Source of the DNA: Haliotis rubra
Lineage: Eukaryota
Length of the DNA: 64,000 bases
NCBI RefSeq assembly: GCF_003918875.1
Contig: NW_025765324.1
Location: 24,041-88,040, forward strand
Direction of reading: 5' to 3'
In this document: piece after piece, positions 1 through 57,385 of the stretch
How positions within the stretch are numbered: position 1 is the stretch's first letter
How the letters are laid out: each line of letters opens with the position of its first letter
The notes under the pieces: generated by a model
Told to the model about the DNA's origin: nothing
The model's database searches: none
What the model saw: the letters and a program-made list of their open reading frames with translations, nothing else
Position numbers and translations under genes: made by a program

Positions 1-2084
1 TTTCTCTTCTCTCTACGGCATGGTTTAACTGCATTTAAACAACTTCCAGTTACCCAACGTTTAACCAGTATTAAGCAAATATTAGATAGTAGTTTGGGAG
101 CTGTGTATCCATTACACATGTAATGGAGCAATGTAAAATCAGACATTATGATATATGTGCCTGAGACGAAATTACAAAATACGGGGCAATTGAAGCAACG
201 CGCTAGTACAGCGTCGCCACACTACAGCAGTATCACTGTGCTACAAGGGGTCACTATGCAAACATCTACGTGTAATACTGCAGCCTGTCCACACGATGAC
301 TGCATGCTTACTATACTGCAGAAATCCCAATACCCTAATATTCTCCCCGAATGTTAACAATCTCACCACACTGAAACAAAATACTACAATAGCTTTATTT
401 CCCAAATGTTATATACATATACTAGTGTCTTTTCACCAAGGGCCTGTCACTATCAATTGTCACAGCACGCATTTAGCTGTGTAAAACAAAGCACCGATGT
501 CTTCTGAAAACAGGATTAGGTTTCCCCTATGACATACAGCATGTTCCCTGGTATTTGTCGACTTTTCTTTGCATGTGTTTCTCACTGGTGTAGCAGAGGG
601 GTTAGGATACACTCACCTCCTTCGCGAACACTTTGTGTCATCACTATTTGATAGAAAGTCATGCACACTTTCCTAGGATATAGTCACAATCGTACAGTGG
701 ACTCTGCCTTTAGTGGATATTCCTGACAATTACATAAAGGGTTGTGTCGCTTTATTTTACACCTATTTTCTTTGAAGTAACTGTGGATTTCTTAATGATA
801 TCGATCTTCTGATGAAACAGAATTCGCTAATCATAAAGGGAACAATTGTACTGAAACATATACTGCTTATTAGCCAAGACACCAGGTGCTAGCCAACAGT
901 TTGTGGCTGTAAATTCGTTTTAATGTTTCATGACCTTTCCATTCGGTCCTTCTTGTGCCAAATTAAATAGATGTTGTCTTTGGATAATGGCTCAACAATT
1001 GCTACAATTCAATGTATATTTAATCACTGTTGCAAGTGATTCACTTCAACTTGTTTTAGGCTTCCGGAGAATGTTTGATCATAAACACCAGTAGAAAGAA
1101 GAAATAGAAAACTCGCCTCTACCCTTTACATATGGCCTTTACATCATGAAAACAGTCTTCTGTGTGTTCATAGATAATGTTACTGTTGCGTTAAAATCAA
1201 TCGTGTCCGATTTGATAAATCTGTACTTTTGATAGTGCATCCAGATAGAAATACTTCTCCTGTTAATTGCATCAGCGGTATGCAAACGGTTAGATTACAT
1301 CATGAAATCAAGAAGTAAACTTCCCATGGAGTGTACAAAATGATTGGTATTGCCATCAACTGTTATCGACTATTCATAGCATGTTCAATAGTAACTTATG
1401 ATTGTAGACCTTTTCATTTTGTTTGTGTGATACATAAACCGATAGCATATGCTAATGTAATGAAATTCCAACTGCTACGCAATCCCTTCTAGTATAGGCA
1501 GTAAGAATACTACAGCATGTGTTTGTTATTTATTCTTCAAGACCATGGTATCAATATTTGTTATCACAGAAACTTAGATATTCATCATCCAAAGGACAAT
1601 GCGTGTTCCGTAAAGAACACTCGCTCAATTTCTAGGACAGGTTACATACTTGCATTCGAATCGAATACTGTGCACACTAGCTACTATTAGATGACTTACT
1701 GCACCCCAACACGGAAATATGACTCAACTCCGGATATTTTCGGATTTCACTATGACATCATCAAGACCCTTCGTGGCAGCACAAATGGTATATTCGCATG
1801 AGACATGGAACCAAGTAAGAGATAGCCTGTATGAAATATGTCAAGCCTAAAATCCCTCCTCTCATATTCAATCTGATTTCGTCAGGACATTCTAAGCATA
1901 TTTCATTAGTTGACACCACTGCTGGAAGCAAAACTGATTACCAGTTAAGTGTTTGGATATCGTTGAATAACACATATATCCAGAGTTAATAATATGGAGA
2001 CATATAGTAACTCGTCCATTTTGTAAACATTGAATTCAGCTTTAAGATTCTCAAACAAAGCACAAATCGTTTGTATTTCAAGTT

Positions 2085-2090
2085 TTATTG
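2085..2090 (-). terminator. AATAAA poly(A) signal of Gly-rich gene copy 1, about 65 nt after the stop. Equivalents lie at 5445-5450 (-), 8788-8793 (-) and 15932-15937 (+).
   Basis: A canonical hexamer in the same position in all four copies. Confidence 0.5.
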
Positions 2091-2155
2091 AACCAATTGT
2101 ATTGTCATGAGTATACAAAATAAATAGTCTTCTTCACACTGCAGGTGACAGTAAC

Positions 2156-2761
2156 TCAGTAGTAGCCGATTCCTGAAACAGAAAAAATAGTTACATATAA
2201 AATTGGGATTTATGGAAAAGTAACATGGAAATGTTGAAACTGCTTGCACCATAAACTATACCAAGCATTTCAAACAGCTGACAACAGTTTTACAGATGTT
2301 TATCAACTGACAACAGCTTATTTGCATAAAATAGTACTAATAAATACATGGGTACATGATATCATTTTATAAAAGTGAAGTTTAAAATGGGATAACAGAA
2401 GAAAGAATGACAGCATGTGTTGTGAAATACCTTTTCCTAGTCCGATTCCGTAGCCTGCCATTCCGTAGAGACCACCATGGCCTCCAAGTCCTCCAAGTCC
2501 TCCAAGTCCTCCATACAGACCTCCCATGCCGTATCCGTATTTGCCTCCGTACAGACCGCCCATTCCTCCGTACAGACCGCCATAGCCTCCGTAAAGACCT
2601 CCCTGCATTCCACCTATTCCGTAGCCTATTCCGCCCATTCCGCCCATTCCGCCCATTCCTCCATACAACCCAGCCATTCCATATGCTCCATACAGACCGG
2701 TTGGCTCAGCAAAGGCGGTAACAGCCAGGCAGGCAACAAGGACGACGACTATTTTCATCAT
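2156..2761 (-). CDS. Secreted Gly/Tyr/Met-rich low-complexity protein (shematrin/prisilkin-like), copy 1. Exon 1 is 2761..2431, exon 2 is 2172..2156, and the product is about 115 aa.
   Basis: ATGATG lies at 2761-2756 (read on the minus strand). The N-terminus MMKIVVVLVACLAVTAFA-EP is a typical signal peptide. The body is GLYGG/GMGG/GLGG repeats. A GT donor sits directly after ...GLGKG (the codon is split g|gt). An acceptor ctgtttcag at 2181-2173 is followed by gaatcggctactactga, which yields ...GIGYY*. The in-frame C-terminus fits the repeat style of the protein. The antisense ORFs over this region are low-complexity artefacts. Confidence 0.7.
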
Positions 2762-3320
2762 TTTGAGTATCTGTTCAGTAACATAAAAATCATCTTCAAG
2801 ACAGGAAAACAACATGTTATCATTACTCGTCTGGAGAATTGACTTCACGCCACTCCTAATGAATAATGTTATCATTTGTCATTTCATATGCATCCACATA
2901 CTGGAAAATTTACAAGAACGGTAAATATTCCTTACTTATTCGTACTTTGATGAATTGGATCAATGTAAAAGTTGAAAAAGGAGAGGTGTGCAGCAGAAGA
3001 ACGAAAACTTCAAAGTATACATGTTTACCACAGGCAAACCTTGACCTGGTACTTACAGTTTGGTGTTAACACGTATCTGTGTCTTAACAGCAGGTGAAAA
3101 TAAGAGATGATAGAATACTTTCCCCTCTCCTATATATATACAATTGGTGGACTATATGTGATTGATTTACCTTGGGCTGGCCACTTCCAGGTAAGCAACA
3201 CACCTTAACGTTAATGATGTAAACTGATCATTCTATTCGCCTCAAAGGTTCTGCCTGAGGTTATCACCCTAAGGCTATACATGTGTGTTGGTATAGATGA
3301 ACGTTCATTTAGGAAGTAGA

Positions 3321-3334
3321 GGGCGGTATATAAT
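3321..3334. promoter_or_regulatory. GC-box (GGGCGG) directly abutting a TATA-like box (TATATAAT) at the unit 1/2 junction. Equivalent motifs lie at 6667-6680, 10017-10030, 14391-14410 and 14736-14750.
   Basis: Perfectly conserved in every unit. It lies about 560 bp upstream (on the minus strand) of the Gly-rich CDS and about 160 bp upstream of a strong donor site (caag|gtaaat, exon end 3171). This suggests a non-coding first exon and a 5'UTR intron. The TATA box is near-palindromic, so the orientation cannot be fixed from sequence alone. Confidence 0.45.
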
Positions 3335-5515
3335 AGGGCGAAGGTGTCTCTTCCTATCTTTCTCTCTCTCTACGGCATGGTTTAACTGCATTTAAACAAC
3401 TTCCAGTTACCCAACGTTTAACCAGTATTAAGCAAATATTAGATAGTAGTTTGGGAGCTGTGTATCCATTACACATGTAATGGAGCAATGTAAAATCAGA
3501 CATTATGATATATGTGCCTGAGACGAAATTACAAAATACGGGGCAATTGAAGCAACGCGCTAGTACAGCGTCGCCACACTACAGCAGTATCACTGTGCTA
3601 CAAGGGGTCACTATGCAAACATCTACGTGTAATACTGCAGCCTGTCCACACGATGACTGCATGCTTACTATACTGCAGAAATCCCAATACCCTAATATTC
3701 TCCCCGAATGTTAACAATCTCACCACACTGAAACAAAATACTACAATAGCTTTATTTCCCAAATGTTATATACATATACTAGTGTCTTTTCACCAAGGGC
3801 CTGTCACTATCAATTGTCACAGCACGCATTTAGCTGTAAAAAAACAAAGCACCGATGTCTTCTGAAAACAGGATTAGGTTTCCCCTATGACATACAGCAT
3901 GTTCCCTGGTATTTGTCGACTTTTCTTTGCATGTGTTTCTCACTGGTGTAGCAGAGGGGTTAGGATACACTCACCTCCTTCGCGAACACTTTGTGTCATC
4001 ACTATTTGATAGAAAGTCATGCACACTTTCCTAGGATATAGTCACAATCGTACAGTGGACTCTGCCTTTAGTGGATATTCCTGACAATTACATAAAGGGT
4101 TGTGTCGCTTTATTTTACACCTATTTTCTTTGAAGTAACTGTGGATTTCTTAATGATATCGATCTTCTGATGAAACAGAATTCGCTAATCATAAAGGGAA
4201 CAATTGTACTGAAACATATACTGCTTATTAGCCAAGACACCAGGTGCTAGCCAACAGTTTGTGGCTGTAAATTCTTTTTTAATGTTTCATGACCTTTCCA
4301 TTCGGTCCTTCTTGTGCCAAATTAAATAGATGTTGTCTTTGGATAATGGCTCAACAATTGCTACAATTCAATGTATATTTAATCACTGTTGCAAGTGATT
4401 CACTTCAACTTGTTTTAGGCTTCCGGAGAATGTTTGATCATAAACACCAGTAGAAAGAAGAAATAGAAAACTCGCCTCTACCCTTTACATATGGCCTTTA
4501 CATCATGAAAACAGTCTTCTGTGTGTTCATAGATAATGTTACTGTTGCGTTAAAATCAATCGTGTCCGATTTGATAAATCTGTACTTTTTGATAGTGCAT
4601 CCAGATAGAAATACTTCTCCTGTTAATTGCATCAGCGGTATGCAAACGGTTAGATTACATCATGAAATCAAGAAGTAAACTTCCCATGGAGTGTACAAAA
4701 TGATTGGTATTGCCATCAACTGTTATCGACTATTCATAGCATGTTCAATAGTAACTTATGATTGTAGACCTTTTCATTTTGTTTGTGTGATACATAAACC
4801 GATAGCATATGCTAATGTAATGAAATTCCAACTGCTACGCAATCCCTTCTAGTATAGGCAGTAAGAATACTACAGCATGTGTTTGTTATTTATTCTTCAA
4901 GACCATGGTATCAATATTTGTTATCACAGAAACTTAGATATTCATCATCCAAAGGACAATGCGTGTTCCGTAAAGAACACTCGCTCAATTTCTAGGACAG
5001 GTTACATACTTGCATTCGAATCGAATACTGTGCACACTAGCTACTATTAGATGACTTACTGCACCCCAACACGGAAATATGACTCAACTCCGGATATTTT
5101 CGGATTTCACTATGACATCATCAAGACCCTTCGTGGCAGCACAAATGGTATATTCGCATGAGACATGGAACCAAGTAAGAGATAGCCTGTATGAAATATG
5201 TCAAGCCTAAAATCCCTCCTCTCATATTCAATCTGATTTCGTCAGGACATTCTAAGCATATTTCATTAGTTGACACCACTGCTGGAAGCAAAACTGATTA
5301 CCAGTTAAGTGTTTGGATATCGTTGAATAACACATATATCCAGAGTTAATAATATGGAGACATATAGTAACTCGTCCATTTTGTAAACATTGAATTCAGC
5401 TTTAAGATTCTCAAACAAAGCACAAATCGTTTGTATTTCAAGTTTTATTGAACCAATTGTATTGTCATGAGTATACAAAATAAATAGTCTTCTTCACACT
5501 GCAGGTGACAGTAAC

Positions 5516-6103
5516 TCAGTAGTAGCCGATTCCTGAAACAGAAAAAATAGTTACATATAAAATTGGGATTTATGGAAAAGTAACATGGAAATGTTGAAAC
5601 TGCTTGCACCATAAACTATACCAAGCATTTCAAACAGCTGACAACAGTTTTACAGATGTTTATCAACTGACAACAGCTTATTTGCATAAAATAGTACTAA
5701 TAAATACATGGGTACATGATATCATTTTATAAAAGTGAAGTTTAAAATGGGATAACAGAAGAAAGAATGACAGCATGTGTTGTGAAATACCTTTTCCTAG
5801 TCCGATTCCGTAGCCTGCCATTCCGTAGAGACCACCATGGCCTCCAAGTCCTCCAAGTCCTCCATACAGACCTCCCATGCCGTATCCGTATTTGCCTCCG
5901 TACAGACCGCCCATTCCTCCGTACAGACCGCCATAGCCTCCGTAAAGACCTCCCTGCATTCCACCTATTCCGTAGCCTATTCCGCCCATTCCGCCCATTC
6001 CTCCATACAACCCAGCCATTCCATATGCTCCATACAGACCGGTTGGCTCAGCAAAGGCGGTAACAGCCAGGCAGGCAACAAGGACGACGACTATTTTCAT
6101 CAT
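5516..6103 (-). CDS. Gly/Tyr/Met-rich secreted protein, copy 2. Exon 1 is 6103..5791, exon 2 is 5532..5516, about 109 aa. It has one fewer GMGG and one fewer GLGG than copy 1.
   Basis: Same structure as copy 1 at an offset of about 3360 bp. It differs from copy 1 only by in-frame 9-nt repeat-unit indels. Confidence 0.7.
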
Positions 6104-8859
6104 TTTGAGTATCTGTTCAGTAACATAAAAATCATCTTCAAGACAGGAAAACAACATGTTATCATTACTCGTCTGGAGAATTGACTTCACGCCACTCCTA
6201 ATGAATAATGTTATCATTTGTCATTTCATATGCATCCACATACTGGAAAATTTACAAGAACGGTAAATATTCCTTACTTATTCGTACTTTGATGAATTGG
6301 ATCAATGTAAAAGTTGAAAAAGGAGAGGTGTGCAGCAGAAGAACGAAAACTTCAAAGTATACATGTTTACCACAGGCAAACCTTGACCTGGTACTTACAG
6401 TTTGGTGTTAACACGTATCTGTGTCTTAACAGCAGGTGAAAATAAGAGATGATAGAATACTTTCCCCCCTCTCCTATATATATATACAATTGGTGGACTA
6501 TATGTGATTGATATACCTTGGGCTGGCCACTTCCAGGTAAGCAACACACCTTAACGTTAATGATGTAAACTGATCATTCTATTCGCCTCAAAGGTTCTGC
6601 CTGAGGTTATCACCCTAAGGCTATACATGTGTGTTGGTATAGATGAACGTTCATTTAGGAAGTAGAGGGCGGTATATAATAGGGCGAAGGTGTCTCTTCC
6701 TATCTTTCTCTTCTCTCTACGGCATGGTTTAACTGCATTTAAACAACTTCCAGTTACCCAACGTTTAACCAGTATTAAGCAAATATTAGATAGTAGTTTG
6801 GGAGCTGTGTATCCATTACACATGTAATGGAGCAATGTAAAATCAGACATTATGATATATGTGCCTGAGACGAAATTACAAAATACGGGGCAATTGAAGC
6901 AACGCGCTAGTACAGCGTCGCCACACTACAGCAGTATCACTGTGCTACAAGGGGTAACTATGCAAACATCTACGTGTAATACTGCAGCCTGTCCACACGA
7001 TGACTGCATGCTTACTATACTGCAGAAATCCCAATACCCTAATATTCTCCCCGAATGTTAACAATCTCACCACACTGAAACAAAATACTACAATAGCTTT
7101 ATTTCCCAAATGTTATATACATATACTAGTGTCTTTTCACCAAGGGCCTGTCACTATCAATTGTCACAGCACGCATTTAGCTGTAAAAAACAAAGCACCG
7201 ATGTCTTCTGAAAACAGGATTAGGTTTCCCCTATGACATACAGCATGTTCCCTGGTATTTGTCGACTTTTCTTTGCATGTGTTTCTCACTGGTGTAGCAG
7301 AGGGGTTAGGATACACTCACCTCCTTCGCGAACACTTTGTGTCATCACTATTTGATAGAAAGTCATGCACACTTTCCTAGGATATAGTCACAATCGTACA
7401 GTGGACTCTGCCTTTAGTGGATATTCCTGACAATTACATAAAGGGTTGTGTCGCTTTATTTTACACCTATTTTCTTTGAAGTAACTGTGGATTTCTTAAT
7501 GATATCGATCTTCTGATGAAACAGAATTCGCTAATCATAAAGGGAACAATTGTACTGAACACATACTGCTTATTAGCCAAGACACCAGGTGCTAGCCAAC
7601 AGTTTGTGGCTGTAAATTCGTTTTTAATGTTTCATGACCTTTCCATTCGGTCCTTCTTGTGCCAAATTAAATAGATGTTGTCTTTGGATAATGGCTCAAC
7701 AATTGCTACAATTCAATGTATATTTAATCACTGTTGCAAGTGATTCACTTCAACTTGTTTTAGGCTTCCGGAGAATGTTTGATCATAAACACCAGTAGAA
7801 AGAAGAAATAGAAAACTCGCCTCTACCCTTTACATATGGCCTTTACATCATGAAAACAGTCTTCTGTGTGTTCATAGATAATGTTACTGTTGCGTTAAAA
7901 TCAATCGTGTCCGATTTGATAAATCTGTACTTTTGATAGTGCATCCAGATAGAAATACTTCTCCTGTTAATTGCATCAGCGGTATGCAAACGGTTAGATT
8001 ACATCATGAAATCAAGAAGTAAACTTCCCATGGAGTGTACAAAATGATTGGTATTGCCATCAACTGTTATCGACTATTCATAGCATGTTCAATAGTAACT
8101 TATGATTGTAGACCTTTTCATTTTGTTTGTGTGATACATAAACCGATAGCATATGCTAATGTAATGAAATTCCAACTGCTACGCAATCCCTTCTAGTATA
8201 GGCAGTAAGAATACTACAGCATGTGTTTGTTATTTATTCTTCAAGACCATGGTATCAATATTTGTTATCACAGAAACTTAGATATTCATCATCCAAAGGA
8301 CAATGCGTGTTCCGTAAAGAACACTCGCTCAATTTCTAGGACAGGTTACATACTTGCATTCGAATCGAATACTGTGCACACTAGCTACTATTAGATGACT
8401 TACTGCACCCCAACACGGAAATATGACTCAACTCCGGATATTTTCGGATTTCACTATGACATCATCAAGACCCTTCGTGGCAGCACAAATGGTATATTCG
8501 CATGAGACATGGAACCAAGTAAGAGATAGCCTGTATGAAATATGTCAAGCCTAAAATCCCTCCTCTCATATTCAATCTGATTTCGTCAGGACATTCTAAG
8601 CATATTTCATTAGTTGACACCACTGCTGGAAGCAAAACTGATTACCAGTTAAGTGTTTGGATATCGTTGAATAACACATATATCCAGAGTTAATAATATG
8701 GAGACATATAGTAACTCGTCCATTTTGTAAACATTGAATTCAGCTTTAAGATTCTCAAACAAAGCACAAATCGTTTGTATTTCAAGTTTTATTGAACCAA
8801 TTGTATTGTCATGAGTATACAAAATAAATAGTCTTCTTCACACTGCAGGTGACAGTAAC

Positions 8860-9455
8860 TCAGTAGTAGCCGATTCCTGAAACAGAAAAATAGTTACATA
8901 TAAAATTGGGATTTATGGAAAAGTAACATGGAAATGTTGAAACTGCTTGCACCATAAACTATACCAAGCATTTCAAACAGCTGACAACAGTTTTACAGAT
9001 GTTTATCAACTGACAACAGCTTATTTGCATAAAATAGTACTAATAAATACATGGGTACATGATATCATTTTATAAAAGTGAAGTTTAAAATGGGATAACA
9101 GAAGAAAGAATGACAGCATGTGTTGTGAAATACCTTTTCCTAGTCCGATTCCGTAGCCTGCCATTCCGTAGAGACCACCAAGTCCTCCAAGTCCTCCAAG
9201 TCCTCCATACAGACCTCCCATGCCGTATCCGTATTTGCCTCCGTACAGACCGCCCATTCCTCCGTACAGACCGCCATAGCCTCCGTAAAGACCTCCCTGC
9301 ATTCCACCTATTCCGTAGCCTATTCCGCCCATTCCGCCCATTCCGCCCATTCCTCCATACAACCCAGCCATTCCATATGCTCCATACAGACCGGTTGGCT
9401 CAGCAAAGGCGGTAACAGCCAGGCAGGCAACAAGGACGACGACTATTTTCATCAT
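8860..9455 (-). CDS. Gly/Tyr/Met-rich secreted protein, copy 3. Exon 1 is 9455..9134, exon 2 is 8876..8860, about 112 aa.
   Basis: Same structure as copies 1 and 2. It lacks the HGG motif and has a different count of Leu-Gly-Gly units. Confidence 0.7.
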
Positions 9456-9989
9456 TTTGAGTATCTGTTCAGTAACATAAAAATCATCTTCAAGACAGGA
9501 AAACAACATGTTATCATTACTCGTCTGGAGAATTGACTTCACGCCACTCCTAATGAATAATGTTATCATTTGTCATTTCATATGCATCCACATACTGGAA
9601 AATTTACAAGAACGGTAAATATTCCTTACTTATTCGTACTTTGATGAATTGGATCAATGTAAAAGTTGAAAAAGGAGAGGTGTGCAGCAGAAGAACGAAA
9701 ACTTCAAAGTATACATGTTTACCACAGGCAATACCTTGACCTGGTACTTACAGTTTGGTGTTAACACGTATCTGTGTCTTAACAGCAGGTGAAAATAAGA
9801 GATGATAGAATACTTTCCCCCTCTCCTATATATATACAATTGGTGGACTATATGTGATTGATTTACCTTGGGCTGGCCACTTCCAGGTAAGCAACACACC
9901 TTAACGTTAATGATGTAAACTGATCATTCTATTCGCCTCAAAGGTTCTGCCTGAGGTTATCACCCTAAGGCTATACATGTGTGTTGGTA

Positions 9990-12900
9990 TAGATGAACGT
10001 TCATTTAGGAAGTAGAGGGCGGTATATAATAGGGCGAAGGTGTCTCTTCCTATCTTTCTCCTCTCTCTACGGCATGGTTTAACTGCATTTAAACAACTTC
10101 CAGTTACCCAACGTTTAACCAGTATTAAGCAAATATTAGATAGTAGTTTGGGAGCTGTGTATCCATTACACATGTAATGGAGCAATGTAAAATCAGACAT
10201 TATGATATATGTGCCTGAGACGAAATTACAAAATACGGGGCAACTGAAGCAACGCGCTAGTACAGCGTCGCCACACTACAGCAGTATCACTGTGCTACAA
10301 GGGGTCACTATGCAAACATCTACGTGTAATACTGCAGCCTGTCCACACGATGACTGCATGCTTACTATACTGCAGAAATCCCAATACCCTAATATTCTCC
10401 CCGAATGTTAACAATCTCACCACACTGAAACAAAATACTACAATAGCTTTATTTCCCAAATGTTATATATAAGGTTCTGCCTAGGGTTATTACCCTAAGG
10501 GCATACAAGAGTGTTGGTATACATGAACAGTCACTTAAGGTTGCTTCACACTTATTTCGAATTTACAGCAATCGGGGAGAATCGGCCAGAAAAAAATAGT
10601 TCCAAAATTCGAACCGCATTCGTGAGACAATTTTTTCAAGCTTTGCTATCTGACGTTTCTGTGACAGATGGTGACGTTTTTATGCGATTCGGCGGTGTTC
10701 TGATGACGGCAGGGCTCATTTGAAGAGCATTCGGGACATTCTGAATGCATTCCAGGTGTATTCGAGGTACATTGGAGCTGTATTTCAACTTCAATCGAAA
10801 TGTTCCGATACATTTGAAGAATATTTGAACTCCAGCAGCAATCAAGATACATTCCGACTCATTCGAGGCATTCTGACAGGATTTGAAGTGGCTTGTCTTT
10901 TCTATTCTCCCTCGAATATGTTCAGATTACTTAGAATGCAGTCAGAATGCAGTAAGAATACTTAGAATGCAGTTCGAATGCACCTCAAAAGCCGGTCGAT
11001 ATTTTTCCACTTCGAATGTACCTCGAAAGTTTTGAACATGTTCAAAACATTCGGGCATATTATATTACATGAATTGACCCGAATAGTTGGAATGCATTCG
11101 GAATGCAGTAAGAAGTTTTAGAATTCAGTTCGAATATCCAGGAATCTCCAGAAATTTTCATTCCGACAGCATTCCGGCTCATTCCGCCGTAATGTACTAC
11201 GAGTGAGACTTTAATAAACCTGTGTGTCTGCCGTATGTACAGCCGGTTAATGAAGCAAAAACAAGTACAATTACCTAATCCGTTATCGATAATTGATGTT
11301 CGGAGTCGGAGACTGAAGCATCGGATTAATGAATCAACAATTGATGTGTTTCTACAGTAAATAAGATTGGTTACAGCTTGAGTCAGTTCAGATAGCGAGG
11401 GAATCGGATTATTGGGGACCGGACTAAGGCGGCCTGACTGTATTATTATTCCGGCGTTTTTACTTCCAATCATAACTCAAGAACCAATTAGATGCGTTTC
11501 CAAAACATCATCAAGGTGCCCCTGCAGTCCCGTAGCACGTAAGAGTAAGGAGAGAAAAGGAAAACATGATTCCTTGAAGCCAAGGAGCCATATTGATTAA
11601 GTCGTATCACCAGCGGGCTGTGCAAACACCGTTCGGTTCAGCTAAGGCCACTAAAGAGAAAGTGCCCTTGACAGTTGGAACAACGGGTTCTTGTTCCTTA
11701 AGAATATTTTTCCCGTGGTATCAAATTATATTCTATGATCCATTATTATGAGCTGTGAAAGAAATTGAATCCAAATCAAATCACATAACTTCTATTTGTA
11801 AATCTCTACACTGGAATCATGTTCCATCTCACAATAACTTTCATATCATCCGAATTCTCAAAGGGTAACCTGGTACTAAAGGACCAATTCACATATAGAA
11901 CACGGAGCCTACATCGCTGCTCTCAGCTATATTTTGACCTGAAATTGAATTATTAAAATCAATTTTGAATTATCTGCCCTTTGTCCTTGAACCTTGAACC
12001 TTGAACCTAGAGATGTTTGTGGTAAGCTTCAGGAACAGGTACACCTTGTTGTTTTTGTGATGAGATTCTGACCTCTGTTTTTTTAGTATGATTGGAACAA
12101 AAAACGGCGGAATAATGATACTAATAAATAATAAATCGAACGATTACAATAGGACTCCTGCCTTTCAGGCATGGAGCCCTAAAAAAATACAGAAAAGGAC
12201 AAAAGACAACACATATGAAAACTATATTCCAACTATCTCTCCAACAAAGGTCGTATCTTCACAAAACAATATAGCGGTATCAGTAACAATTTCTGGTGTC
12301 TCCCGCCGTGATATTGCTGGAATATTGCTAAAAGCGGCGTAAAATCATACTCACTCACTCACTCACTCACAAAACAACATAGCGGTATCAGTAACGATGC
12401 ACATGGTTATAATATCACATATGTAGATGAAAGTTTCTTCTACGTAAAAGAAGGGATCTTCTATGTAGATGAAAGTATCTTGTTTGTTTTAGTTCAACAC
12501 CGCACTCAGCAATATTGTGCACAACCATGTGACTGCTGTCTCTAAATAATCGAGTATGGACCAGATATTGTGTGGACCAGAGACTCACTTCATGGGCATC
12601 GATCTACGCATCTGTAATACGATGTCATGCATCAACCAAGGCGGCGAGCCTGTGACCACCCAATCTCGTGGTCACAGCATGTGTTGATGAAGTCCAATTC
12701 AGACCCGGGAAAGAGAGTGAGTTTAGTTTAACGCTGCACCCAGCAATATTCCAGCTATCTGTAAATAATCGACTCTGGAATTCATACCTGGATCTTCACG
12801 GGTAATCACTTACGTAGATAAAAGTGTCTTCAACGTAGATGAAAGTATCATCTACTTAGACGAAAGTATCTTTAAAGAAGGTGACAAAAACAATGAAGAC

Positions 12901-14428
12901 TATGACCTCAAAAACGGTTCCATAAAATAGTTTATGAAGCGGAGTAAAATGTCCGTCTTCGGTTCATTGAAATTAGCGAGGGGACAGAAAGTTGACTTCG
13001 ACTGCCGCTGGTGTCGAGCCTGATAACAACGTGTCAACGGGGCCAAGTTCGAATCTAAGGCTTAAGGAACTGCCACTCCGAGAGAAAATTCTTGTACCAG
13101 GAGTGAATCCCACGAATAGGGTAGAGTCTAACATTGCCAGAAAACTACTCATCCGCTGGTGCCTCAGAAGCCCTGATCGAGATGCTCTATTACATACCGC
13201 CCTCTACTTCCTAAGACCCCCGTCACACAATTACGGCGGAATGAGCCGGAATGCTGTCGGAATGAAAATTTCTGGAGATTCATGGAAATTCGAACTGAAT
13301 TCTAAAACTTCTTACTGCATTCCGAATGCATTCCAACTATTCGGGTCAATTCATGTAATATGCCCGAATGTTTTGAACATGTTCAAAACTTTCGAGGTAC
13401 ATTCGAAGTGGAAAAATATCGACCGGCTTTTGAGGTGCATTCGAACTGCATTCTAAGTATTCTTACTGCATTCTGACTGCATTCTAAGTAATCTGAACAT
13501 ATTCGAGGGAGAATAGAAAAGACAAGCCACTTCAAATCCTGTCAGAATGCCTCGAATGAGTCGGAATGTATCTTGATTGCTGCTGGAGTTCAAATATTCT
13601 TCAAATGTATCGGAACATTTCGATTGAAGTTGAAATACAGCTCCAATGTACCTCGAATACACCTGGAATGCATTCAGAATGTCCCGAATGCTCTTCAAAT
13701 GAGCCCTGCCGTCATCAGAACACCGCCGAATCGCATAAAAACGTCACCATCTGTCACAGAAACGTCAGATAGCAAAGCTTGAAAAAATTGTCTCACGAAT
13801 GCGGTTCGAATTTTTGGAACTATTTTTTTCTGGCCGATTCTCCTCGATTGCTGTAAATTCGAAATAAGTGTGAAGCAGCCTTAGTGACTGTTCATGTATA
13901 CCAACACTCTTGTATGCCCTTAGGGTAGGTAATAACCCCAGGCAGAGCCTTATATATAACATTTGGGAAATAAAGCTATTGTAGTATTTTGTTTCAGTGT
14001 GGTGAGATTGTTAACATTCGGGGAGAATATTAGGGTATTGGGATTTCTGCAGTATAGTAAGCATGCAGTCATCGTGTGGACAGGCTGCAGTATTACACGT
14101 AGATGTTTGCATATTGACCCCTTGTAGCACAGTGATACTGCTGTAGTGTGGCGACGCTGTACTAGCGCGTTGCTTCAATTGTCCCGTATTTTGTAATTTC
14201 GTCTCAGGCAAATATGTCATAATGTCTGATTTTACATTGCTCCATTACATGTGTAATGGATACACAGCTCCCAAACTACTATCTAATATTTGCTTAATAC
14301 TGGTTAAACGTTGGGTAACTGGAAGTTGTTTAAATGCAGTTAAACCATGCCGTAGAGAGAGGAGAAAGATAGGAAGAGACACCTTTCGCCCTATTATATA
14401 CCGCCCTCTACTTCCTAAATGAATGTTC
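9990..14428. repeat. Large palindrome. The left arm (about 9990-11192) and the right arm (about 13226-14428) are inverted copies. The spacer (about 11193-13225) is about 2 kb.
   Basis: Identical ORF pairs appear on opposite strands: 10720..10965(+) = 13453..13698(-), 10636..10845(-) = 13573..13782(+), 10202..10411(+) = 14011..14220(-), and 9907..10200(-) = 14222..14422(+). The symmetry centre is about 12209. Each arm consists of unit-junction sequence plus a ~727-bp GAATG/CATTC-rich low-complexity segment (10466-11192). Confidence 0.9.
12478..12812 (-). mobile_element. Two diverged, partly deleted SINE-A copies in the palindrome spacer. A SINE tail fragment (ctggaatattgctaaaagcggcgtaaaa + (ACTC)n) also lies at 12312-12370.
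   Basis: They match the SINE-A consensus seen at least 12 times in the window. Short gtagatgaaagt subrepeats flank them. Confidence 0.6.
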
Positions 14429-14633
14429 ATGTATAAATGCGAGTAGTGACTATTGTTAGTGACAGTCCATTTTGGTAAAATAGATACCTGTACATGTATG
14501 TAACATACAGCCAGTATAGTCGTGGGATTGTTGACATTCAGGGTGAATATCATGCTGTTGGGATTTCTGCAGAGTAGTAAGCAGGCGGTCATCGTGTGGA
14601 TTGACTGCAGCATCAAACGTAGTGATACTGCTA

Positions 14634-14727
14634 GAGAGAGAGAGAGAGACAGAGAGAGAAGGAGAGAGAGAGGGAGAGAGAGAAAGAGAGAGAGAGAATG
14701 AGAGAGTGAGTGATAGAGAGAGAGAGG
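14634..14727. repeat. (GA)n microsatellite.
   Basis: A direct run of agagagag. Confidence 0.95.
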
Positions 14728-15294
14728 AGCACTCTATTATATACCGCCCTCTACTCCCGAAATGAATGTTCATGTATACCAACACACATGTCCACCCTCA
14801 GGGTGATAACCTCAGGCAGACCCGTTGAGGCGAAAACAAATGATCAGCTTACATCATTAACGTTAAGGTGTGTTGCTTACCTGGAAGTGGCCAGCCCAAG
14901 GTAAATCAATCACATATAGTCCACCAGTTGTATATAAAGGAGAGGGAAAAGGTATTCTATCATCTCTTAATCACCTGCTGTTAAGACACAGATACGCGTT
15001 AACACCAAACTGTAAGTACCGTTTCAAGGTTTGCTGTGGTAAATATGTATACCTTGAAGTTGTCGTTCTTCTGCTGCACAACTCTCCTTTATCAACTTTA
15101 CATTGGTCCAATTCATCAAAGTGCGAATAAGTAAGGCATCTGTACATTTGGAAGTATGTGGATGCACATGAAATAAAAAAATGATAACATTATTCATTAG
15201 GAGTGGCGTGAAGTCAATTCTCCAGACGAGTAATGATAACATGTTGTTTTCCTGTCTTGAAGATGATTTTTATGTTACTGAACAGATACTCAAA

Positions 15295-15866
15295 ATGATG
15301 AAGATAGTCGCCGTCCTTGTTGCCTGCCTGGCTGTTACCGCCTTTGCTGAGCCAACCGGTCTGTATGGAGCATATGGAATGGCTGGGTTGTATGGAGGAA
15401 TGGGCGGAATAGGCTACGGAATAGGTGGAATGCAGGGAGGTCTTTACGGAGGCTATGGCGGTCTGTACGGAGGAATGGGCGGTCTGTACGGAGGCAAATA
15501 CGGATACGGCATGGGAGGTCTGTATGGAGGACTTGGAGGACTTGGAGGCCATGGTGGTCTCTACGGAATGGCAGGCTACGGAATCGGACTAGGAAAAGGT
15601 ATTTCACAACACATGCTGTCATTCTTTCTTCTGTTATCCCATTTTAAACTTCACTTGTATAAAATGATATCATGTATTTATTAGTACTATTTTATGCAAA
15701 TAAGCTGTTGTCAGTTGATAAACATCTGTAAAACTGTTGTCAGCTGTTTGAAATGCTTGGTATAGTTTATGGTGCAAGCAGTTTCAACATTTCCATGTTA
15801 CTTTTCCATAAATCCCAATTTTATATGTAACTATTTTTTCTGTTTCAGGAATCGGCTACTACTGAG
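15295..15866 (+). CDS. Gly/Tyr/Met-rich secreted protein, copy 4, in the inverted unit. Exon 1 is 15295..15598, exon 2 is 15850..15866, about 106 aa (MKIVAV variant).
   Basis: ATGATG at 15295-15300. Donor g|gt at 15598/15599. Acceptor ctgtttcag at 15841-15849, then gaatcggctactactga. AATAAA at 15932-15937. A candidate 5'UTR acceptor ttactgaacag ends at 15285, 10 nt before the ATG. Confidence 0.7.
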
Positions 15867-17079
15867 TTACTGTCACCTGCAGTGTGAAGAAGACTATTTA
15901 TTTTGTATACTCATGACAATACAATTGGTTCAATAAAACTTGAAATACAAACGATTTGTGCTTTGTTTGGGAAATCTTAAAGCTGAACTGAAAATTCACA
16001 AAATGGCCAAGCCATCTAGGTTTCTTGATAGAGAAAGAGATTGGCAGTTGAGTGAATTAATTTCATTTCATCAATAAATGGACCCACACTCGGGAATACC
16101 CCACCGCCCCTCATCAATGGATGGACCCATACTCGTCAAATACGACTGACTGCTACATAAAACAACATTTACTCACAATTGTGTCATAATGACATTGAAA
16201 ATGACAAAGCCATGATCGCAAATTGGAACAATTTATTTACTTTATAATATTTCAGAAAGACTGGACAAGTTCAACAGCAGTATTCTAAAGCATCGGAGAT
16301 GGTTTATCATGATAACTAATGAAATGTTGTTTCTAAAATGTTTGACAAATGAGGAACCAACATGCAGTAGTGTGGAGGCTAATATACTGATTATATATTT
16401 ATCAAACAATTGTTGAAAAGAATAGGCCTGAGCAAGGTAAACAGTATAGGAGTTCTCTCCCTTGATCCACAACAGCCTCAGTCCTGCAAAATGAAGTAAA
16501 CAGGCCAAAAGCAACTAAAAGATTTCTAACACATGACAGGAACAAGCACTGAAATTGCATTGTGTAACACAATAATAATTAAAAGGCACTCCATGCACCA
16601 TTTAAAAATGATATTAAATATTGATGTAAGATATGAAATAAATTAATACTTTTCGTCTACCTATTTCTTCAGGCAGCAACTGACATGTTTACTGACTTAA
16701 ACACTCTATTATTATTGAATTTAGTAATATGGAACAAAACATAGAACAAAAAGCTATCAGTTAATTTGTTTAAATAACTGTTCAAATCCAAAGTAAACCT
16801 GTAGTTTCAGTTCCAACACAACACTACCACTTAAAGCCTTTCTCTGAGATAACGAATATTTCTTCATAACACCCCCAGATATATCCAATGTTTGTCTTGT
16901 TAACCTGATCAACAAATACAATGTATACACACAAACAAAATATGGCCTACCCACTCTAACCATCCAAGAAACATTTGGTAAGTCTAACATTTTTCGATAT
17001 CGATTTCGATCTGCTGTTACCTTTTCTTAAAAACTTTGACTCTTCTTTAGCACTATAGTGTGTGCAAACCCTGAGACAA

Positions 17080-17492
17080 CATCGACAACCCATCTGCAGA
17101 CAACCCATCTGCAGACAACCCATCTACCCATCTACAGACAACCCATCTGCAGTCAACACATCTGCAGACAACCCATCTGCAGACAACCCATCTACAGACA
17201 ACCCATCTGCAGTCAACACATCTACAGACCATCTGCAGACAACCCATCTACAGACAACCAACTGCAGATAACCCATCTGCAGTCAACGCATCTGCAGTCT
17301 ACCCATCTGCAGTCAACGCATCTGCAGACAACCCATCTGCAGACAACCCATCTGCAGACAACCCATCTGCAGTCAACCCATCTGCAGACAACCCATCTGC
17401 AGACAACCCATCTGCAGTTAACCCATCTGCAGACAACCCATCAGCAGTCAACCCATCTGCAGACAACCATCTGCAGACAACCCATCTACAGA
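17080..17492. repeat. Minisatellite with a 15-bp unit (cagacaacccatctg), about 27 copies.
   Basis: Visible periodicity. The ORFs 17058..17630 and 17053..17247 are artefacts of it. Confidence 0.9.
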
Positions 17493-17681: not shown

Positions 17682-18480
17682 TTATTGCCGCCTGATCCTG
17701 CGTCTCTGTCCACCATTGTAAGGCTGGTACCGACAACGGTTGAAGTCCACATGCCGAGCCATCTGTTCAAAGTTGTTGTTGCTGTAGGGATGCCACTGGA
17801 AGTTGTCCCTGGATCCAAGGTCTGTCACAAAGCTGCTGTTATCCATGATTTGGCCATACCCACAATCATTTCTCAGCTTCCTGTTGGTGTCCATTGTCTG
17901 TCTGTTTAGAGTGCCACGGTTTATGTTCATGGGGTTGATGTCCTTCAACATTCGGTTCACATCAAGGTTTAGTGGGCGACGTTGGGGCCGAACAGGCTGT
18001 TCCTGTCTGTTCAAAACCTGAGGCAATGCTCGGGAAGGAATGGTGTTACATCCAAAACGAAATATCTCCGGGTTCTTTTCCTGGTTTTTCTGGACATTGC
18101 CAGGGAGATGGAAGCCCCAGGCATCCGAGATGTGAGTCAGCAGCAGGTTGGTAATGCGCCGATGAGCTGTCATGTCCCAGTGTATGCCGTCATCGGCACG
18201 GCGGTGAAGCTGATACCGCAGGAAGTAATGCAGGTCAAGAACATCAAAGTCATTTTCAACCACAACCTTGGCTGCATAATAGTTGGCTTCCAGGATGTCC
18301 AAACGCAGAGTGGAGTTCATGAATTCAATCTCAGGGATTATGAAACCACCCCGAGCATTCTTTGAAATGGGAAGTGTAGTGTTCCAGATGACCAGAGAGT
18401 CAGCAGGCAGCACCTCCTTGAACCGCCTGAACAATGTCTTCAGGTTCTCTTTGTACTCATCGATAGCTTTCACACCATAC
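17682..18480 (-). CDS. PCED1: PCED1-like terminal exon. It encodes (R)YGVKAIDEY…LVIWNTTLPI…FDVLDLHYF…DGIHWD…LLLTHISDAWGFHLPG plus a long C-terminal tail and stop.
   Basis: Acceptor ctgtgttgcag| with a phase-2 start at 18480. It carries conserved SGNH/PC-esterase block III (VIWNT) and the DxxH catalytic motif (DGIHWD). The stop is at 17684-17682. Confidence 0.85.
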
Positions 18481-19639
18481 CTGCAACACAGAAACGTATG
18501 ATCTAACCAAACACATACATTTGCACACAATCACTGAACAGGTCACTAAGTGTGGCAGCTCTTGGTCTGTACAGGTCCCAAGCAACCAAAGCTGGACAAC
18601 GTAACAGATGAGGTAGTCGGGCAGGGTGACCTGGTTGCTTGCATGTCATCATACACCATTGGTAAAGATCTTTGCTCATGACATCAATAAATGGATTGTA
18701 TGGTTTGGACTTAAAGGGACACAGACCTTTGTATTTCTCCAAGACTGGTTGTTGCCTTTGTTGTATTTTTAATGTTGACCAGCAAATCGACCAAGGGCAG
18801 CTAATGAGACCTCTCTGGCAGCTATAGACAGCCTGGGTAAAGCTTGGGATTAGTGCCCCTTTAATTATAATAATTACAGGCTTTATGATGTCACTGGAAT
18901 ACAGCCAAGTGTAGATGCTAACACTGTTATCAAGCAAGTGATAACGATGTTAGAATATACACTGAAACAGCACATCTATTGCAAAAAAGAAGTTGTCTAT
19001 CCATGAAATTATACCAGCTTCTAAATGCCACTTAAAGAAGTTATACTGCAAAGTGTGGCATTAGATCACACACAAACCCACAAACGAACAGCTTATCATT
19101 ATCTGTGAAGGATGAGGTGGTTGAACACTTAACAAGAATATTTTAAGATTGTAGTATTCATGTTAGGATAACAATCATTTCTGGATATGACCCGATGTAT
19201 CAGTGAATTACTAGTATTTACTTGGTCAGACACTAAAAAGACCCTCACCAAATCACAGCCATTTAGTTCGGTGTGGGTGGTAAAAAACTATGCTAGTTAA
19301 AGATGAATTATACAAGTTTGTTGGTTAGTTAATGTCACACTCAGCCGCATTCCAGATATATGACAGCATTTTCTAAATAATCAGTGACAGACTTCATGAG
19401 CATCGATCTACACAGCTGACATAACAAATACATTTAATCAGCGAAGTCACCAAGTCCTGTTAACTGCCTCTTTGGACAAACAAGGGTTGATGAGAAATAT
19501 TCTAACCAAGATTACCACTGACCGCCAAATTCAGTTGCCTCTTATGACCCTTTCAACCCAAGGCTCTTCAAGGCCTAGATTCATAAGCATTATCATTATC
19601 ACACAATACTTTAAGATTGACAATCATCATCTAAGTTAC

Positions 19640-20169: not shown

Positions 20170-21720
20170 AGCTTGATTTTAGACTAAGTGCAAATCGTTT
20201 CCATGGAAATCATGAAAAAAATAAATGACAAAAATCTGCGAATAGCAAAAGGCACCACTTTGGGATCTGCCTCACATATCTGCCAAGTTTTGCTGAAAGA
20301 TATCGAGATGTTTTTGAGTTGTGCTCCGGAAACGAAGCCCACCCCTCACTTTTGGGACTAAGTCCGAATCGTTTCCATGGAAACCGAAAATAAAAATGCC
20401 AAAATCTGCAAATAGCAAAAGGCACAACTTTAGGATGTGTTTGATATATCTACCAAGTTTTGTTGAAATATATTATAACGGTTTTTGAGTTGTGCTCGAA
20501 ACGAAAAGCAATCCTTACTTTTGAGACTAAGTCCAAAAATGTTTCCATGGAAACCAAGAAAAATAAAAATGCCAAAATCTGCAAATAGCAAAAGGCACAA
20601 CTTTAGGATCTGTTTGATATATCTACCAAGTTTTGTTGAAATGTTTTGAATGGTTCTTGAGTTATGCTCCGGAAACAAAGCCCACCCCTCACTTTTGGGA
20701 TAAAGTCCGAATCGTTTCCATGGAAACCGGGAAAAATAAAAATACCAAAAATCTGTGAAGAGCAAAAGGCACCACTTAAGGTTCTGTTTGATATATCTAC
20801 CAAGTCTTGTTGAAAAATATTAAACGGTTCTTGAGTTATGCTCCGGAAACGAAACCCGGCCCTTCCTTTTGAGACTAAGTCTGAATCATTTCCATGGAAA
20901 CCAAAAAAATAATAAATCACAAATATCTGCAAATAGCAAAAGGCACCACTTCAAGATCTGCCTCACATATCTGCCAAGTTTTGCTGAAAGATATTGAGAA
21001 GTTTTCGAGAAGTGCTCCGAAACGGCTTCCACCCTCACTTTTGGGACTAAGTCCGAATCGTTTCCATGGAAACCGGAAAAAATAAAATGCCAAAATCTGC
21101 AAATAGCAAAGGCACAACTTTAGGATGTGTTTGATATATCTACCAAGTTTTGTTGAAATATATTAAACGGTTCTTGAGTTATGCTCCGAAACAAAGCAAT
21201 CCTTACTTTTGAGACTAAGTCCAAAATGTTTCCATGGAAACCGGAAAAATAAAATGCCAAAAAATCTGCAAATAGCAAAAGGCACCACTGTAAGGTTCTG
21301 TTTCATACATCTACCAAGTTTTGTTGAAAAAATATTAAACGGTTCTTGAGTTATGTCTCGAAACGAAGCCCCACCCTCACTTTTGGGACTAAGTCCGAAT
21401 CGCATTCCATGGAAACCGGAAAAACATAAATGCCAAAAAATCTGTGAATAGCAAAAGGCACCACTTTAGGATCTGTTTGATATATCTACCAAGTTTTGTT
21501 GAAAAATACTGAACAGTTCTTGAGTTATGCTCCGGAAACGAAGCCCACCCTTCTTTAAGACTAAGTCCAAAACGTTTCCATGGAAACCGAGAAAAATAAA
21601 AATGACAATAATCTGTAAATAGCAAAAGGCACCACCTTAGGTTATGTTTGACATATCTACCAATTTGGGTTGAAAAATATCGAACGGTTTTTGAGTTATG
21701 CTCCGGAAACAAAATGATTA
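20170..21720. repeat. Satellite with a ~172-bp unit (…gtttccatggaaacc…ctgcaaatagcaaaaggcac…), about 9 copies, inside a PCED1 intron.
   Basis: The motif gtttccatgg recurs at 20196, 20371, 20541, 20714, 20889, 21061, 21228, 21404 and 21574. Confidence 0.9.
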
Positions 21721-23865: not shown

Positions 23866-24125
23866 CCAGTAGTGAGTGAGTGAGTGAGTTTAGTTTTACG
23901 CTGTGCTCAGCAATATTCCAGCTATATAGCAGTGGTCTGTAAATAATAGAATCTGGACCAGACAATCCAGTGATCAACAGCATGAGCATCGATCTGCGCA
24001 ATTGGTAACCGATGACATGTGTCAACCAAGTCAGCAAGCCTGACCACCCGATCCCGTTAGTCGCCTCTTACGACAAGCATGGGTTACTGAAGATCAATTC
24101 TAACCTGGATCTTCACGGGTTCCTC
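23866..24125 (-). mobile_element. SINE-A copy.
   Basis: Same consensus. Confidence 0.8.
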
Positions 24126-25124: not shown

Positions 25125-25995
25125 CAGGGTCTCAATGACTTTCTTTACAGTGAGTCACTCATTAGGGTTTCAGATTTGTTCTATTACAGTGAGTCACTCT
25201 AACAGGTTTCAGATTTGTTGAAATTACAGTGAGTGACATAGCAGGGTTTCTGATTTGTAGCAATACAGTAGTCTTTGTCAGACAGAGTTTGTCTACAAAC
25301 TCTATGACAGTTTCAGATTTGTTCTTTTACAGTGAGTCACTCTATAGCAGGGTTTCAGATTTGTTCTTTTACAGAGAGTCACTCTATAGCAGGGTTTCAG
25401 ATTTGTTCTTTTACAGAGAGTCACTCAACTTCAGTATTTCAGATTTGTTCTACTACAGAGAGTCACTCTATTGCAGGGTTTCAGATTTGTTCTTTTACAG
25501 AGAGTCACTCAACTTCAGTATTTCAGATTTGTTCTACTACAGAGAGCCACTCTATAGCAGGGTTTCAGATTTGTTCTTTTACAGTGAGTCACTCTATAGC
25601 AGGGTTTCAGATTTGTTCTTTTACAGAGAGTCACTCTATAGCAGGGTTTCAGATTTGTTCTTTTACAGTGAGTCACTCTATAGCAGGGTTTCAGATTTGT
25701 TCTTTTACAGAGAGTCACTCTATAGCAGGGTTTCAGATTTGTTCTTTTACAGTGAGTCACTCTATAGCAGGGTTTCAGATTTGTTCTTTTACAGAGTCAC
25801 TCACTCTACTTCAGTATTTCAGATTTGTTCTATTACAGAGAGTCACTCTATTGCAGTATTTCAGATTTGTTCTACTACAGAGAGTCACTCTATTGCAGTA
25901 TTTCAGATTTGTTCTTCAACAGTGTCCCTATCTCTATAGAAGAGTTTCAGATTTGTTCTTTTTCTGTGAGTCACTCTTCAGCAGGGTTTCACTAA
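25125..25995. repeat. Minisatellite with a 42-bp unit (agcagggtttcagatttgttcttttacagagagtcactctat), about 20 copies, inside a PCED1 intron.
   Basis: Visible periodicity. The ORFs 25229..25939, 25332..26096 and 25515..25760 are artefacts of it. Confidence 0.9.
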
Positions 25996-30889: not shown

Positions 30890-31180
30890 TATAATACATC
30901 CCTCATGACATGCTGTCATCGTATCACCCGTGAAGGTCCGGGTTAGAATATTGGCCTTCAGTAACCCATGCTTGTCGTAAGAGGCGACTAACGGGATCGG
31001 GTGGTCAGCCTCGCTGACTTGGTTGACACATGTCATCGGTTCCCAATTGCGCAGATCGATGCTCATGCTGTTGATCACTGGATTGTCTGGTCCAGACTCA
31101 ATTATTTACAGTCCGCCGCCATATAGCTGGAATATTGCTGACTGCGGCGTAAAACCAAACTCACTCACTGTCATCGTATC
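30890..31180 (+). mobile_element. SINE-A copy, near full length.
   Basis: It matches the consensus, and the tail (actcactc) is at the right. Confidence 0.8.
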
Positions 31181-37020: not shown

Positions 37021-37199
37021 ATTCTGACCTAGTCTCTCGTACAGACCCTGAAGCAATTATATCCAAGAAAGCCCACGCAAGTCTAGAAAATGTGGCAAGT
37101 CTAGATTTCCTCAGCTTCAGGGCTCCTTTTCATTATATTATATTTTTCTTTACTATGAACATTTTTCAGTAAATTATGTTCATTTCAGAGACTAGTTGT

Positions 37200-49890: not shown

Positions 49891-50108
49891 AGCAGCCTAT
49901 ACTCACAACCGCTTCATCTATGAATTATCTAGTTTAAATACATAGCGTTAGGTTAGTGTATCGCCGTTTCGTTATTTCATATCTTTATTCCCGTTATATT
50001 AGTGAAGGTCGACCACTCCTCCACCCGCTTTGTCTTGTTTGTTGAAAACATTCTATCTCACAAAGCTTTGCTTCTACCGCTTCCTTTGTCCGTTTTCAGA
50101 TTGTGAGA

Positions 50109-57169: not shown

Positions 57170-57385
57170 TTACCCATGCTTCTTGTAAGAGGCGACTAAC
57201 GGGTTCAGGTGGTCAGGCTCGCTGACTGGGTTGACACATGTCATCGGTTCCCAATTGCACAGATCGATGCTCATGTTATTGATCACTGGATTGTCTGGTC
57301 CAGACTCGATCATTTACAGACCGCCGACATATAGCTGGAATATTGCTGAGTACGGCGTAAAACTAAGCTCACTCAATCACTTAAA
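57170..57385 (+). mobile_element. SINE-A copy.
   Basis: Consensus match. Confidence 0.8.

Follow-up and report, generated by a model that had tools for sequence, protein, structure and literature searches.

Near-identical tandem genes for a glycine/tyrosine-rich secreted protein in Haliotis rubra differ in length by whole 9-nucleotide coding units, probably through slippage-type events

Secreted, glycine-rich and repetitive proteins that evolved independently of one another have been described together as silk-like structural proteins (SLSPs; PMC4944945). Among shell matrix proteins with repetitive low-complexity domains (RLCDs), the shematrin and KRMP families (Yano 2006; McDougall 2013) have diverged as repeat motifs were gained, lost and shuffled, and replication slippage has been proposed for repetitive low-complexity shell proteins (PMC4897951). 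In the abalone Haliotis asinina, Has-tsfgr1 is a secreted Gly/Leu/Tyr repeat protein of 114 amino acids (aa) from the larval shell field and juvenile mantle edge (PMC2034539), while for the silkmoth chorion families the title of a work cited in PMC4944945 speaks of localised gene conversion that maintains sequence identity. Here we describe a locus that invites comparison with these systems, in a stretch of 64,000 nucleotides (nt) of Haliotis rubra DNA (contig NW_025765324.1, positions 24,041 to 88,040; hereafter the window). Positions 1 to about 16000 of the window hold four intact two-exon gene copies, A to D, of which A, B and C lie on the minus strand and D on the plus strand. We propose that this tandem array, kept near-identical by concerted evolution, encodes a small secreted Gly/Tyr/Leu/Met-rich protein, and that two perfect 9-nt tracts in exon 1 are its only fast-changing sites, at which whole units are gained and lost. 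We put the joint probability of the gene models, of concerted evolution and of a slippage-type origin of the length differences at roughly three in four.

The four copies share one gene model. Each has the donor AAAAG/GTATTT, an intron of 250-258 nt, an acceptor ending ...TTTCAG and a second exon of 17 nt (GA ATC GGC TAC TAC TGA), with AATAAA about 67 nt 3' of the stop codon. Exon 2 was placed using the gene for P0001, the H. asinina orthologue, and the model is supported because this orthologue terminates ...GLGKGIGYY. The whole spliced products of A, B, C and D are 115, 109, 112 and 106 aa long, exactly the four copies and lengths given in a preliminary description of the sequence, whose range of 2431-15598 corresponds to the outer boundaries of exon 1; tblastn and blastn found no further copies or fragments of the gene in the window. 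The predicted protein begins with a putative signal peptide of 18 aa (MMKIVVVLVACLAVTAFA followed by EP, judged by eye). The mature chain of 88-97 aa (8.4-9.1 kDa, isoelectric point about 8.2) is 49-51% Gly and 15-17% Tyr, with Leu, Met, two Lys and one Glu and with no Arg, Cys, Asp or Ser; it contains GLYGG, GMGG and GLGG repeats, with 9- and 21-nt repeats in the DNA, and ends in ...GIGYY.

What distinguishes the four products? In a four-way DNA alignment with tract mapping, the unit GGAATGGGC (Met-Gly-Gly) occurs 3, 2, 3 and 1 times in A, B, C and D, respectively, and the unit GGAGGACTT (Gly-Gly-Leu) 3, 2, 3 and 2 times. Copy C has also precisely lost the degenerate unit GGAGGCCAT (Gly-Gly-His) that follows the GGAGGACTT tract, which is the loss of HGG recorded in the preliminary description; direct reading of the sequence places 3 nt of TGG microhomology at the flanks of this deletion. 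Exon 1 carries 0 substitutions among A, B and C, and every coding difference between them is a 9-nt insertion or deletion (indel) in one of the two perfect tracts or the loss of the adjoining unit. On top of its unit differences, D departs from the other copies at two single bases of the signal-peptide sequence, AAA to AAG (synonymous) and GTC to GCC (Val to Ala). The statement that all differences are 9-nt blocks or loss of HGG is thus accurate for A to C and does not extend to D, and its wording of the blocks as G-M-G-G or G-L-G-G needs amendment, since 9 nt are three codons (MGG or LGG) and not four residues. Aligning exon 1, the check that had been proposed alongside that statement, gives whole-unit indels with the frame kept in all four copies, and no frame-breaking indel separates any of them. 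The residues gained or lost through the indels are only Gly, Met, Leu and one His, while Tyr numbers 15 in every copy and in H. asinina as well.

At least four independent unit-indel events are required, all of which lie in the 54 nt that the perfect tandem 9-mers occupy or next to them, and this pattern is not due to chance. The repeats run head to tail without mismatch, their copy number varies and the edges of the indels fall at the edges of the units, as in a coding minisatellite, or variable number tandem repeat (VNTR). The earlier suggestion of replication slippage or unequal exchange is borne out: every length change coincides with a whole unit of a perfect 9-nt tract or with the adjoining degenerate unit. 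Comparison within the exon and between species points to the same sites. An imperfect 21-nt repeat of the same exon 1 (TRF, 82% matches) shows no length variation. In H. asinina, at least 7 tandem copies of the P0001 type (CM074540.1, about 7.28-7.30 Mb, GCA_037392515.2) were found, all those seen being 101 aa long; they lack tandem 9-mers, and GGAGVLG and GSLYGGYGG occupy the sites of the MGG and GGL tracts. The units of this array are 98.6-99.9% identical, that is, more diverged than those of the window, yet the proteins do not vary in length. Likewise, Haliotis cracherodii (GCA_022045235.1, an assembly identified through PMC9709981) has a 7-copy paralogous array with six 27-nt repeats that contain synonymous interruptions and are constant in length. 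Because the 21-nt repeat and the H. asinina and H. cracherodii arrays show no length variation, we read the variation in the window as a mutational bias at perfect tandem repeats, and with H. asinina as outgroup, the origin and expansion of the tracts fall in the lineage of the window species.

The same comparison bears on the possibility that the length variants are kept by selection, as a graded set of isoforms (106-115 aa) that would tune a material or broaden defence. That four copies have four different lengths, that the number and positions of Tyr are invariant while the spacers change, and that the ratio of non-synonymous to synonymous divergence (dN/dS) is below 1 all speak for such a set. 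Frame preservation is automatic with a 9-nt unit, however, the variation is confined to perfect tandem 9-mers as mutational bias predicts, and neither the H. asinina array (7 copies) nor the H. cracherodii paralogue array (7) shows length heterogeneity, so that it is no feature conserved across the family. We consider selected isoforms very unlikely. Slippage or out-of-register exchange at the 9-nt tracts is, as far as sequence can tell, well supported, and the gain and loss of units would proceed through replication slippage, out-of-register gene conversion or unequal sister-chromatid exchange. The outcome is a set of in-frame changes that yield paralogues of 106-115 aa differing only in the number of G-G-M and G-G-L spacers and in one G-G-H, with the 15 Tyr unchanged.

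Several points weigh against our reading. Slippage, out-of-register conversion and unequal sister-chromatid exchange are not separable by sequence, and the loss of HGG in C, with just 3 nt of microhomology (TGG), could alternatively be a unit-replacement event. The array is 99.8% identical, and the correctness of its assembly is checkable only with reads. The structural, shell-related role that we discuss below is drawn from composition and analogy only; for four diagnostic peptides, the searchable literature returned no paper, and neither the four spliced proteins nor the four read-through open reading frames (ORFs) had an exact match in a collection of 15 billion proteins.

How are the copies kept so similar? 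The genes are about 99.8% identical including their introns, with substitutions at about 0.1-0.3%, and the non-coding differences among the units of A to C are a few substitutions and indels of 1-4 nt, mostly of single bases. Across species, blastn aligns the whole unit of 3.2-3.35 kb with the H. asinina array at 81-82% identity, and it is on this whole-unit DNA homology, rather than on flanking genes, that the orthology of the two arrays rests. A unit identity of about 82% between species as against 98.6-99.9% within them is the signature of concerted evolution. What the window shows here is one end of a tandem array that probably continues to the left of the window: three direct units and a partial fourth are followed by a head-to-head junction and then by the inverted copy D (Table 1). 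A higher-order repeat of two units, with the first unit nearer to the third than to the second, was considered and rejected, as the partial fourth unit breaks the alternation.

Copy D is particularly informative. Its homogenised tract begins at -115 and takes in both exons, the intron and the poly(A) signal; D and B are 99.3% identical in exon 1 and 99.6% in the intron, and an inverted repeat over exon 2 and the 3' end of D (I6) is 100% identical to its partner. The upstream flank of D (14734-15178) is only about 90% identical to the direct units, a comparison of the upstream segments of D and B gives 92% with seven gap events, and the homology stops at 16006. That the intron is as well conserved as the exon while the flanks have diverged indicates a conversion tract of about 800 nt, matching the transcription unit in extent. 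This points to homogenisation of D by gene conversion, and, judging from these patterns, recombination certainly operates in the array. An insertion absent from the direct units lies upstream of D at 14436-14733 and holds an (AG)47 microsatellite (14633-14726) together with a diverged partial duplicate of the unit (14519-14622, 82% identical). The ORFs in the arms of the inverted repeat, 11060-11473 (-) and 12992-13456 (+), have no Pfam match.

Such high identity also raises the concern that the copies are mis-assembled haplotypes, or that their differences are consensus errors of long reads, rather than true paralogues. The units are indeed about 99.8% identical, and many of the non-coding differences are 1-nt indels, a class typical of long-read error. 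Differences of whole 9-nt units are, in contrast, atypical of consensus error, discrete substitutions separate the units, and the flanks of copy D are distinct and diverged; moreover, the same family forms arrays of at least 7 copies in two independent assemblies of other Haliotis species. We regard an assembly artefact as very improbable.

Does the preserved frame mean that the genes are under selection? The preliminary description had taken it so, reasoning that in-frame indels imply a functional protein rather than pseudogenes. This inference does not follow, since the unit of 9 nt is three codons and every whole-unit indel is in frame as a matter of course, and since the copies differ by about 0.1-0.3%, with an intron conserved like the exon, so that decay would not be expected yet whether they are selected or not. 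Its functional conclusion nevertheless stands on separate evidence, from which the genes are probably functional. The ORFs are intact in the 4 copies of the window, in 7 of H. asinina and in 7 of H. cracherodii. The two-exon layout, the phase-1 intron after ...GLGK(G), the 17-nt exon 2, and the donor and acceptor are common to the window and H. asinina, and the splice sites, C-terminus and poly(A) signal are kept between them. Against H. asinina, dN/dS is about 0.45-0.55, with a synonymous divergence (dS) of 0.17-0.20 and an intron divergence of 0.143; the departure, which concerns one species pair, is marginally significant (Fisher p=0.044). Conservation between these species peaks at -75..+45, the 120 nt around the start codon that comprise the promoter or 5' untranslated region (UTR) and the signal peptide (93-95%). 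A 3' UTR block is likewise among the best-conserved segments, and the Gly-rich core is lower (62-88%). In H. cracherodii, the paralogues have five variable codons, all of them synonymous.

Could the copies still be non-functional or decaying, and look intact only because they are young? The divergence within the array is too low to reveal decay, and H. asinina has a dispersed, 5'-truncated copy (P0002, discussed below). Yet the ORF, splice sites, signal peptide, C-terminus and poly(A) signal have been kept across about 17-20% synonymous divergence at a dN/dS of about 0.5, conservation within the unit is highest over the promoter and signal peptide, and the variation among the H. cracherodii paralogues is synonymous only. 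We judge decay to be highly improbable.

In both species, the frame is also open for about 38 codons 5' of the MMK start (MITLFIRSG...EQILK and MIISLITCAV...EQILK), at 2762-2875, 6104-6217, 9456-9569 and 15181-15294 in the window and, for example, at 9887-10000 in the H. asinina locus L001. Over the final 75 or so nt upstream of the ATG, the window species and H. asinina show 95% conservation. We read this segment as probably core promoter and 5' UTR and not as part of the protein, since translation from further upstream would leave the signal peptide buried.

The family appears to be restricted to Haliotis. An exhaustive phmmer search of 1.84 billion representatives returned three relatives only, all from Haliotis, and a profile search added one match, a fragment on a 557-nt contig, so that only Haliotis proteins were returned. 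The match to P0001 (E=5.3e-24) has 82% identity over residues 1-110, and the N-terminus and C-terminus GYGIGLGKGIGYY are invariant in the alignment. The family is multi-copy in at least three abalone species. It is uncharacterised, and NCBI labels the H. asinina relatives "glycine-rich protein-like". The H. asinina array of that name resembles the one in the window in its two exons, phase-1 intron, second exon encoding (G)IGYY and stop, and homogenised tandem arrangement; it differs in lacking (GGAATGGGC)n and (GGAGGACTT)n tracts, in the constant 101 aa of the products of all 7 copies seen, and in a name that is computational only.

Two other models among these relatives deserve comment. P0002 of H. 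asinina ("glycine-rich protein-like", 123 aa; L003 10001-11465, CM074540.1 at about 4.82 Mb) is dispersed, 2.4 Mb from the array; of the gene it retains only exon 2, the intron and the last (3') two-thirds of exon 1, and its N-terminus comes from unrelated sequence beside transposase-like ORFs. We take P0002 for a probable truncated pseudogene or chimeric model and, since it is truncated at the 5' end and lies so far from the array, it was rejected as a counterpart of copy D. In H. cracherodii, the 346-aa model P0003 (JAJLRC010000001.1, L002 10001-18891) is a fusion of three adjacent tandem genes and an annotation artefact, for the locus L002 has 7 distinct genes spaced about 4.1 kb, every one of which encodes a signal peptide. 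A neighbouring 979-aa model probably has the same fusion problem.

What might the protein do? Neither the window protein nor its relatives have a Pfam family, and a paper on the H. laevigata shell proteome and one on abalone copy-number variation mention nothing that matches. A putative signal peptide and a repetitive, low-complexity mature part with about 50% Gly agree with the composition of silk-like structural proteins. Has-tsfgr1 (GenBank DW986319) comes from the same genus and is similar in its 114 aa, its signal peptide of 17-18 aa, its mature part of more than 50% Gly with Leu/Tyr repeats, and its terminal Tyr. Compared by description, it differs in having GGYGLGL x11 and the C-terminus GYKGY, whereas the window proteins lack GGYGLGL and end in GIGYY, and it is absent from the homology-search matches of the window protein. 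The shematrins and KRMPs of pearl oysters form multigene families whose members are secreted and Gly-rich, with repeats of the X-Gn-X type and Tyr at the C-terminus. The exhaustive phmmer and profile searches, which return only Haliotis proteins, show no homology to shematrins; shematrins are larger, and their basic C-terminal cluster, according to the motif description in PMC2034539, is absent from the window protein. The likeness to Has-tsfgr1 and the shematrins is thus a functional resemblance and not family membership. The SLSPs and chorion clusters are classes set by composition rather than homology.

By analogy with these systems, we propose that the protein may be a dosage-amplified silk-like matrix component secreted by an epithelium, most plausibly at the mantle edge, for the shell or periostracum. 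Tyr would serve for cross-linking and the Gly-X spacers for flexibility, and with such a matrix one to three extra spacers would be close to neutral. We hold this structural-matrix function at a little under an even chance. The family is a candidate component of the shell, periostracum or another extracellular matrix.

The main functional rival is a Gly/Tyr-rich antimicrobial or defence peptide, for which an array would permit rapid, high-level induction. The nlp and cnc genes of Caenorhabditis elegans and the arachnid acanthoscurrin and ctenidins encode small secreted Gly/Tyr-rich products and form tandem clusters of recent paralogues. The window protein is likewise small, secreted, mildly basic (isoelectric point 8.2), Gly/Tyr-rich, tandemly amplified and lineage-restricted. 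These antimicrobial peptides have no homology to it, however; its net charge is only about +1, it has no amphipathic or Cys-stabilised motif, and Has-tsfgr1, the closest characterised Haliotis analogue by architecture, is a gene of the mantle and shell field. A defence peptide is in our view unlikely.

Whichever function applies, the locus is a small, clean case in which concerted evolution, with a conversion tract matching the transcription unit, is combined with unit slippage in a microsatellite-like coding tract. It also illustrates that in-frame indels alone are no proof of selection. The phenomenon is ordinary for low-complexity secreted proteins and opens no new question. As a long shot, the 9-nt tracts might be built-in hypermutable modules, such that each array member or individual would have its own spacer-length isoform of a cross-linkable protein. 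If this were true, the heterogeneous mixture would tune the secreted material or diversify a defence peptide, while gene conversion would hold the rest constant, the 15 tyrosines included.

Table 1. Positions in the window of the genes, their 9-nt tracts and the units of the array
Feature	Position	Strand	Description
Gene A, exon 1	2431..2761	-	331 nt, phase 1; putative signal peptide and Gly/Tyr-rich region
Gene A, intron	2173-2430	-	
Gene A, exon 2	2156..2172	-	Finishes Gly codon, then Ile-Gly-Tyr-Tyr and stop
Gene A, poly(A) signal	2084-2089	-	AATAAA
Gene B, exon 1	5791..6103	-	313 nt
Gene B, exon 2	5516..5532	-	
Gene C, exon 1	9134..9455	-	322 nt; without the GGH unit
Gene C, exon 2	8860..8876	-	
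Gene D, exon 1	15295..15598	+	304 nt; two point substitutions in signal peptide (K synonymous, V6A)
Gene D, exon 2	15849..15865	+	
First tract, gene A	2633..2659	-	Perfect (GGAATGGGC)x3, MGG x3
First tract, gene B	5984-6001		GGAATGGGC x2
First tract, gene C	9327-9353		GGAATGGGC x3
First tract, gene D	15397-15405		GGAATGGGC x1
Second tract, gene A	2468..2512	-	(GGAGGACTT)x3, then degenerate GGAGGCCAT and GGTGGTCTC
Second tract, gene B	5846-5863		GGAGGACTT x2
Second tract, gene C	9180-9206		GGAGGACTT x3; GGAGGCCAT lost
Second tract, gene D	15526-15543		GGAGGACTT x2
Three direct tandem units	1-3357, 3358-6704, 6705-10054	-	About 3.35 kb each; 99.1-99.3% identical, gaps counted
Partial fourth unit	10055-10469		
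Head-to-head junction of direct array and inverted copy D	10037..14385		Inverted repeat; centre 2.27 kb
Inverted-repeat arms, first pair	10037-10494/13928-14385		98% complementary
Inverted-repeat arms, second pair	10590-11072/13346-13828		98% complementary
Homogenised tract of copy D	15179..15973	+	About 800 nt; 99.3-100% identical to A-C

Finally, we note other features of the window. Rfam and tRNA scans of its full length gave no match. A single-exon nanos-like gene lies at 60561-61628 (-), with a zf-nanos domain (E=1e-22); its ORF is 97% identical to the H. asinina nanos-like protein C7EAA0 over 295 aa, and translation probably begins in truth at Met61 of this ORF (about 61448). Pfam gave no match for the long ORFs at 50103-50822 (+), 51564-52967 (+) and 17682-18530 (-), of 239, 467 and 282 aa. 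The C-terminal segments of the first two are visibly alike (...VRGQISLV...VATA... and ...VQGQIAVL...VATA...), which suggests that these ORFs may be adjacent paralogous exons of one uncharacterised gene.

The window is unusually rich in minisatellites. One, at 34437-38406, is a 4-kb array of a 31-nt unit (about 129 copies, 83% matches) that lifts the local GC content to 0.51 and yields long spurious minus-strand ORFs. At 48067-49906, a 1.8-kb array of the 30-nt unit AACTACAACAGCTTATACTCACCCCATCTC has an extreme strand asymmetry (GC skew -0.76). Tandem arrays of a 15-nt unit (x28) and of a 42-nt unit (x16) are found at 17084-17492 and 25310-25991, respectively, and a satellite of 174 or 343 nt (x9 or x4.5) at 20177-21710. 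A dispersed repeat of about 210 nt, which is probably a short interspersed element, occurs in both orientations with 82-93% identity at 30950-31169, 23875-24098, 57172-57381 and 62452-62655.

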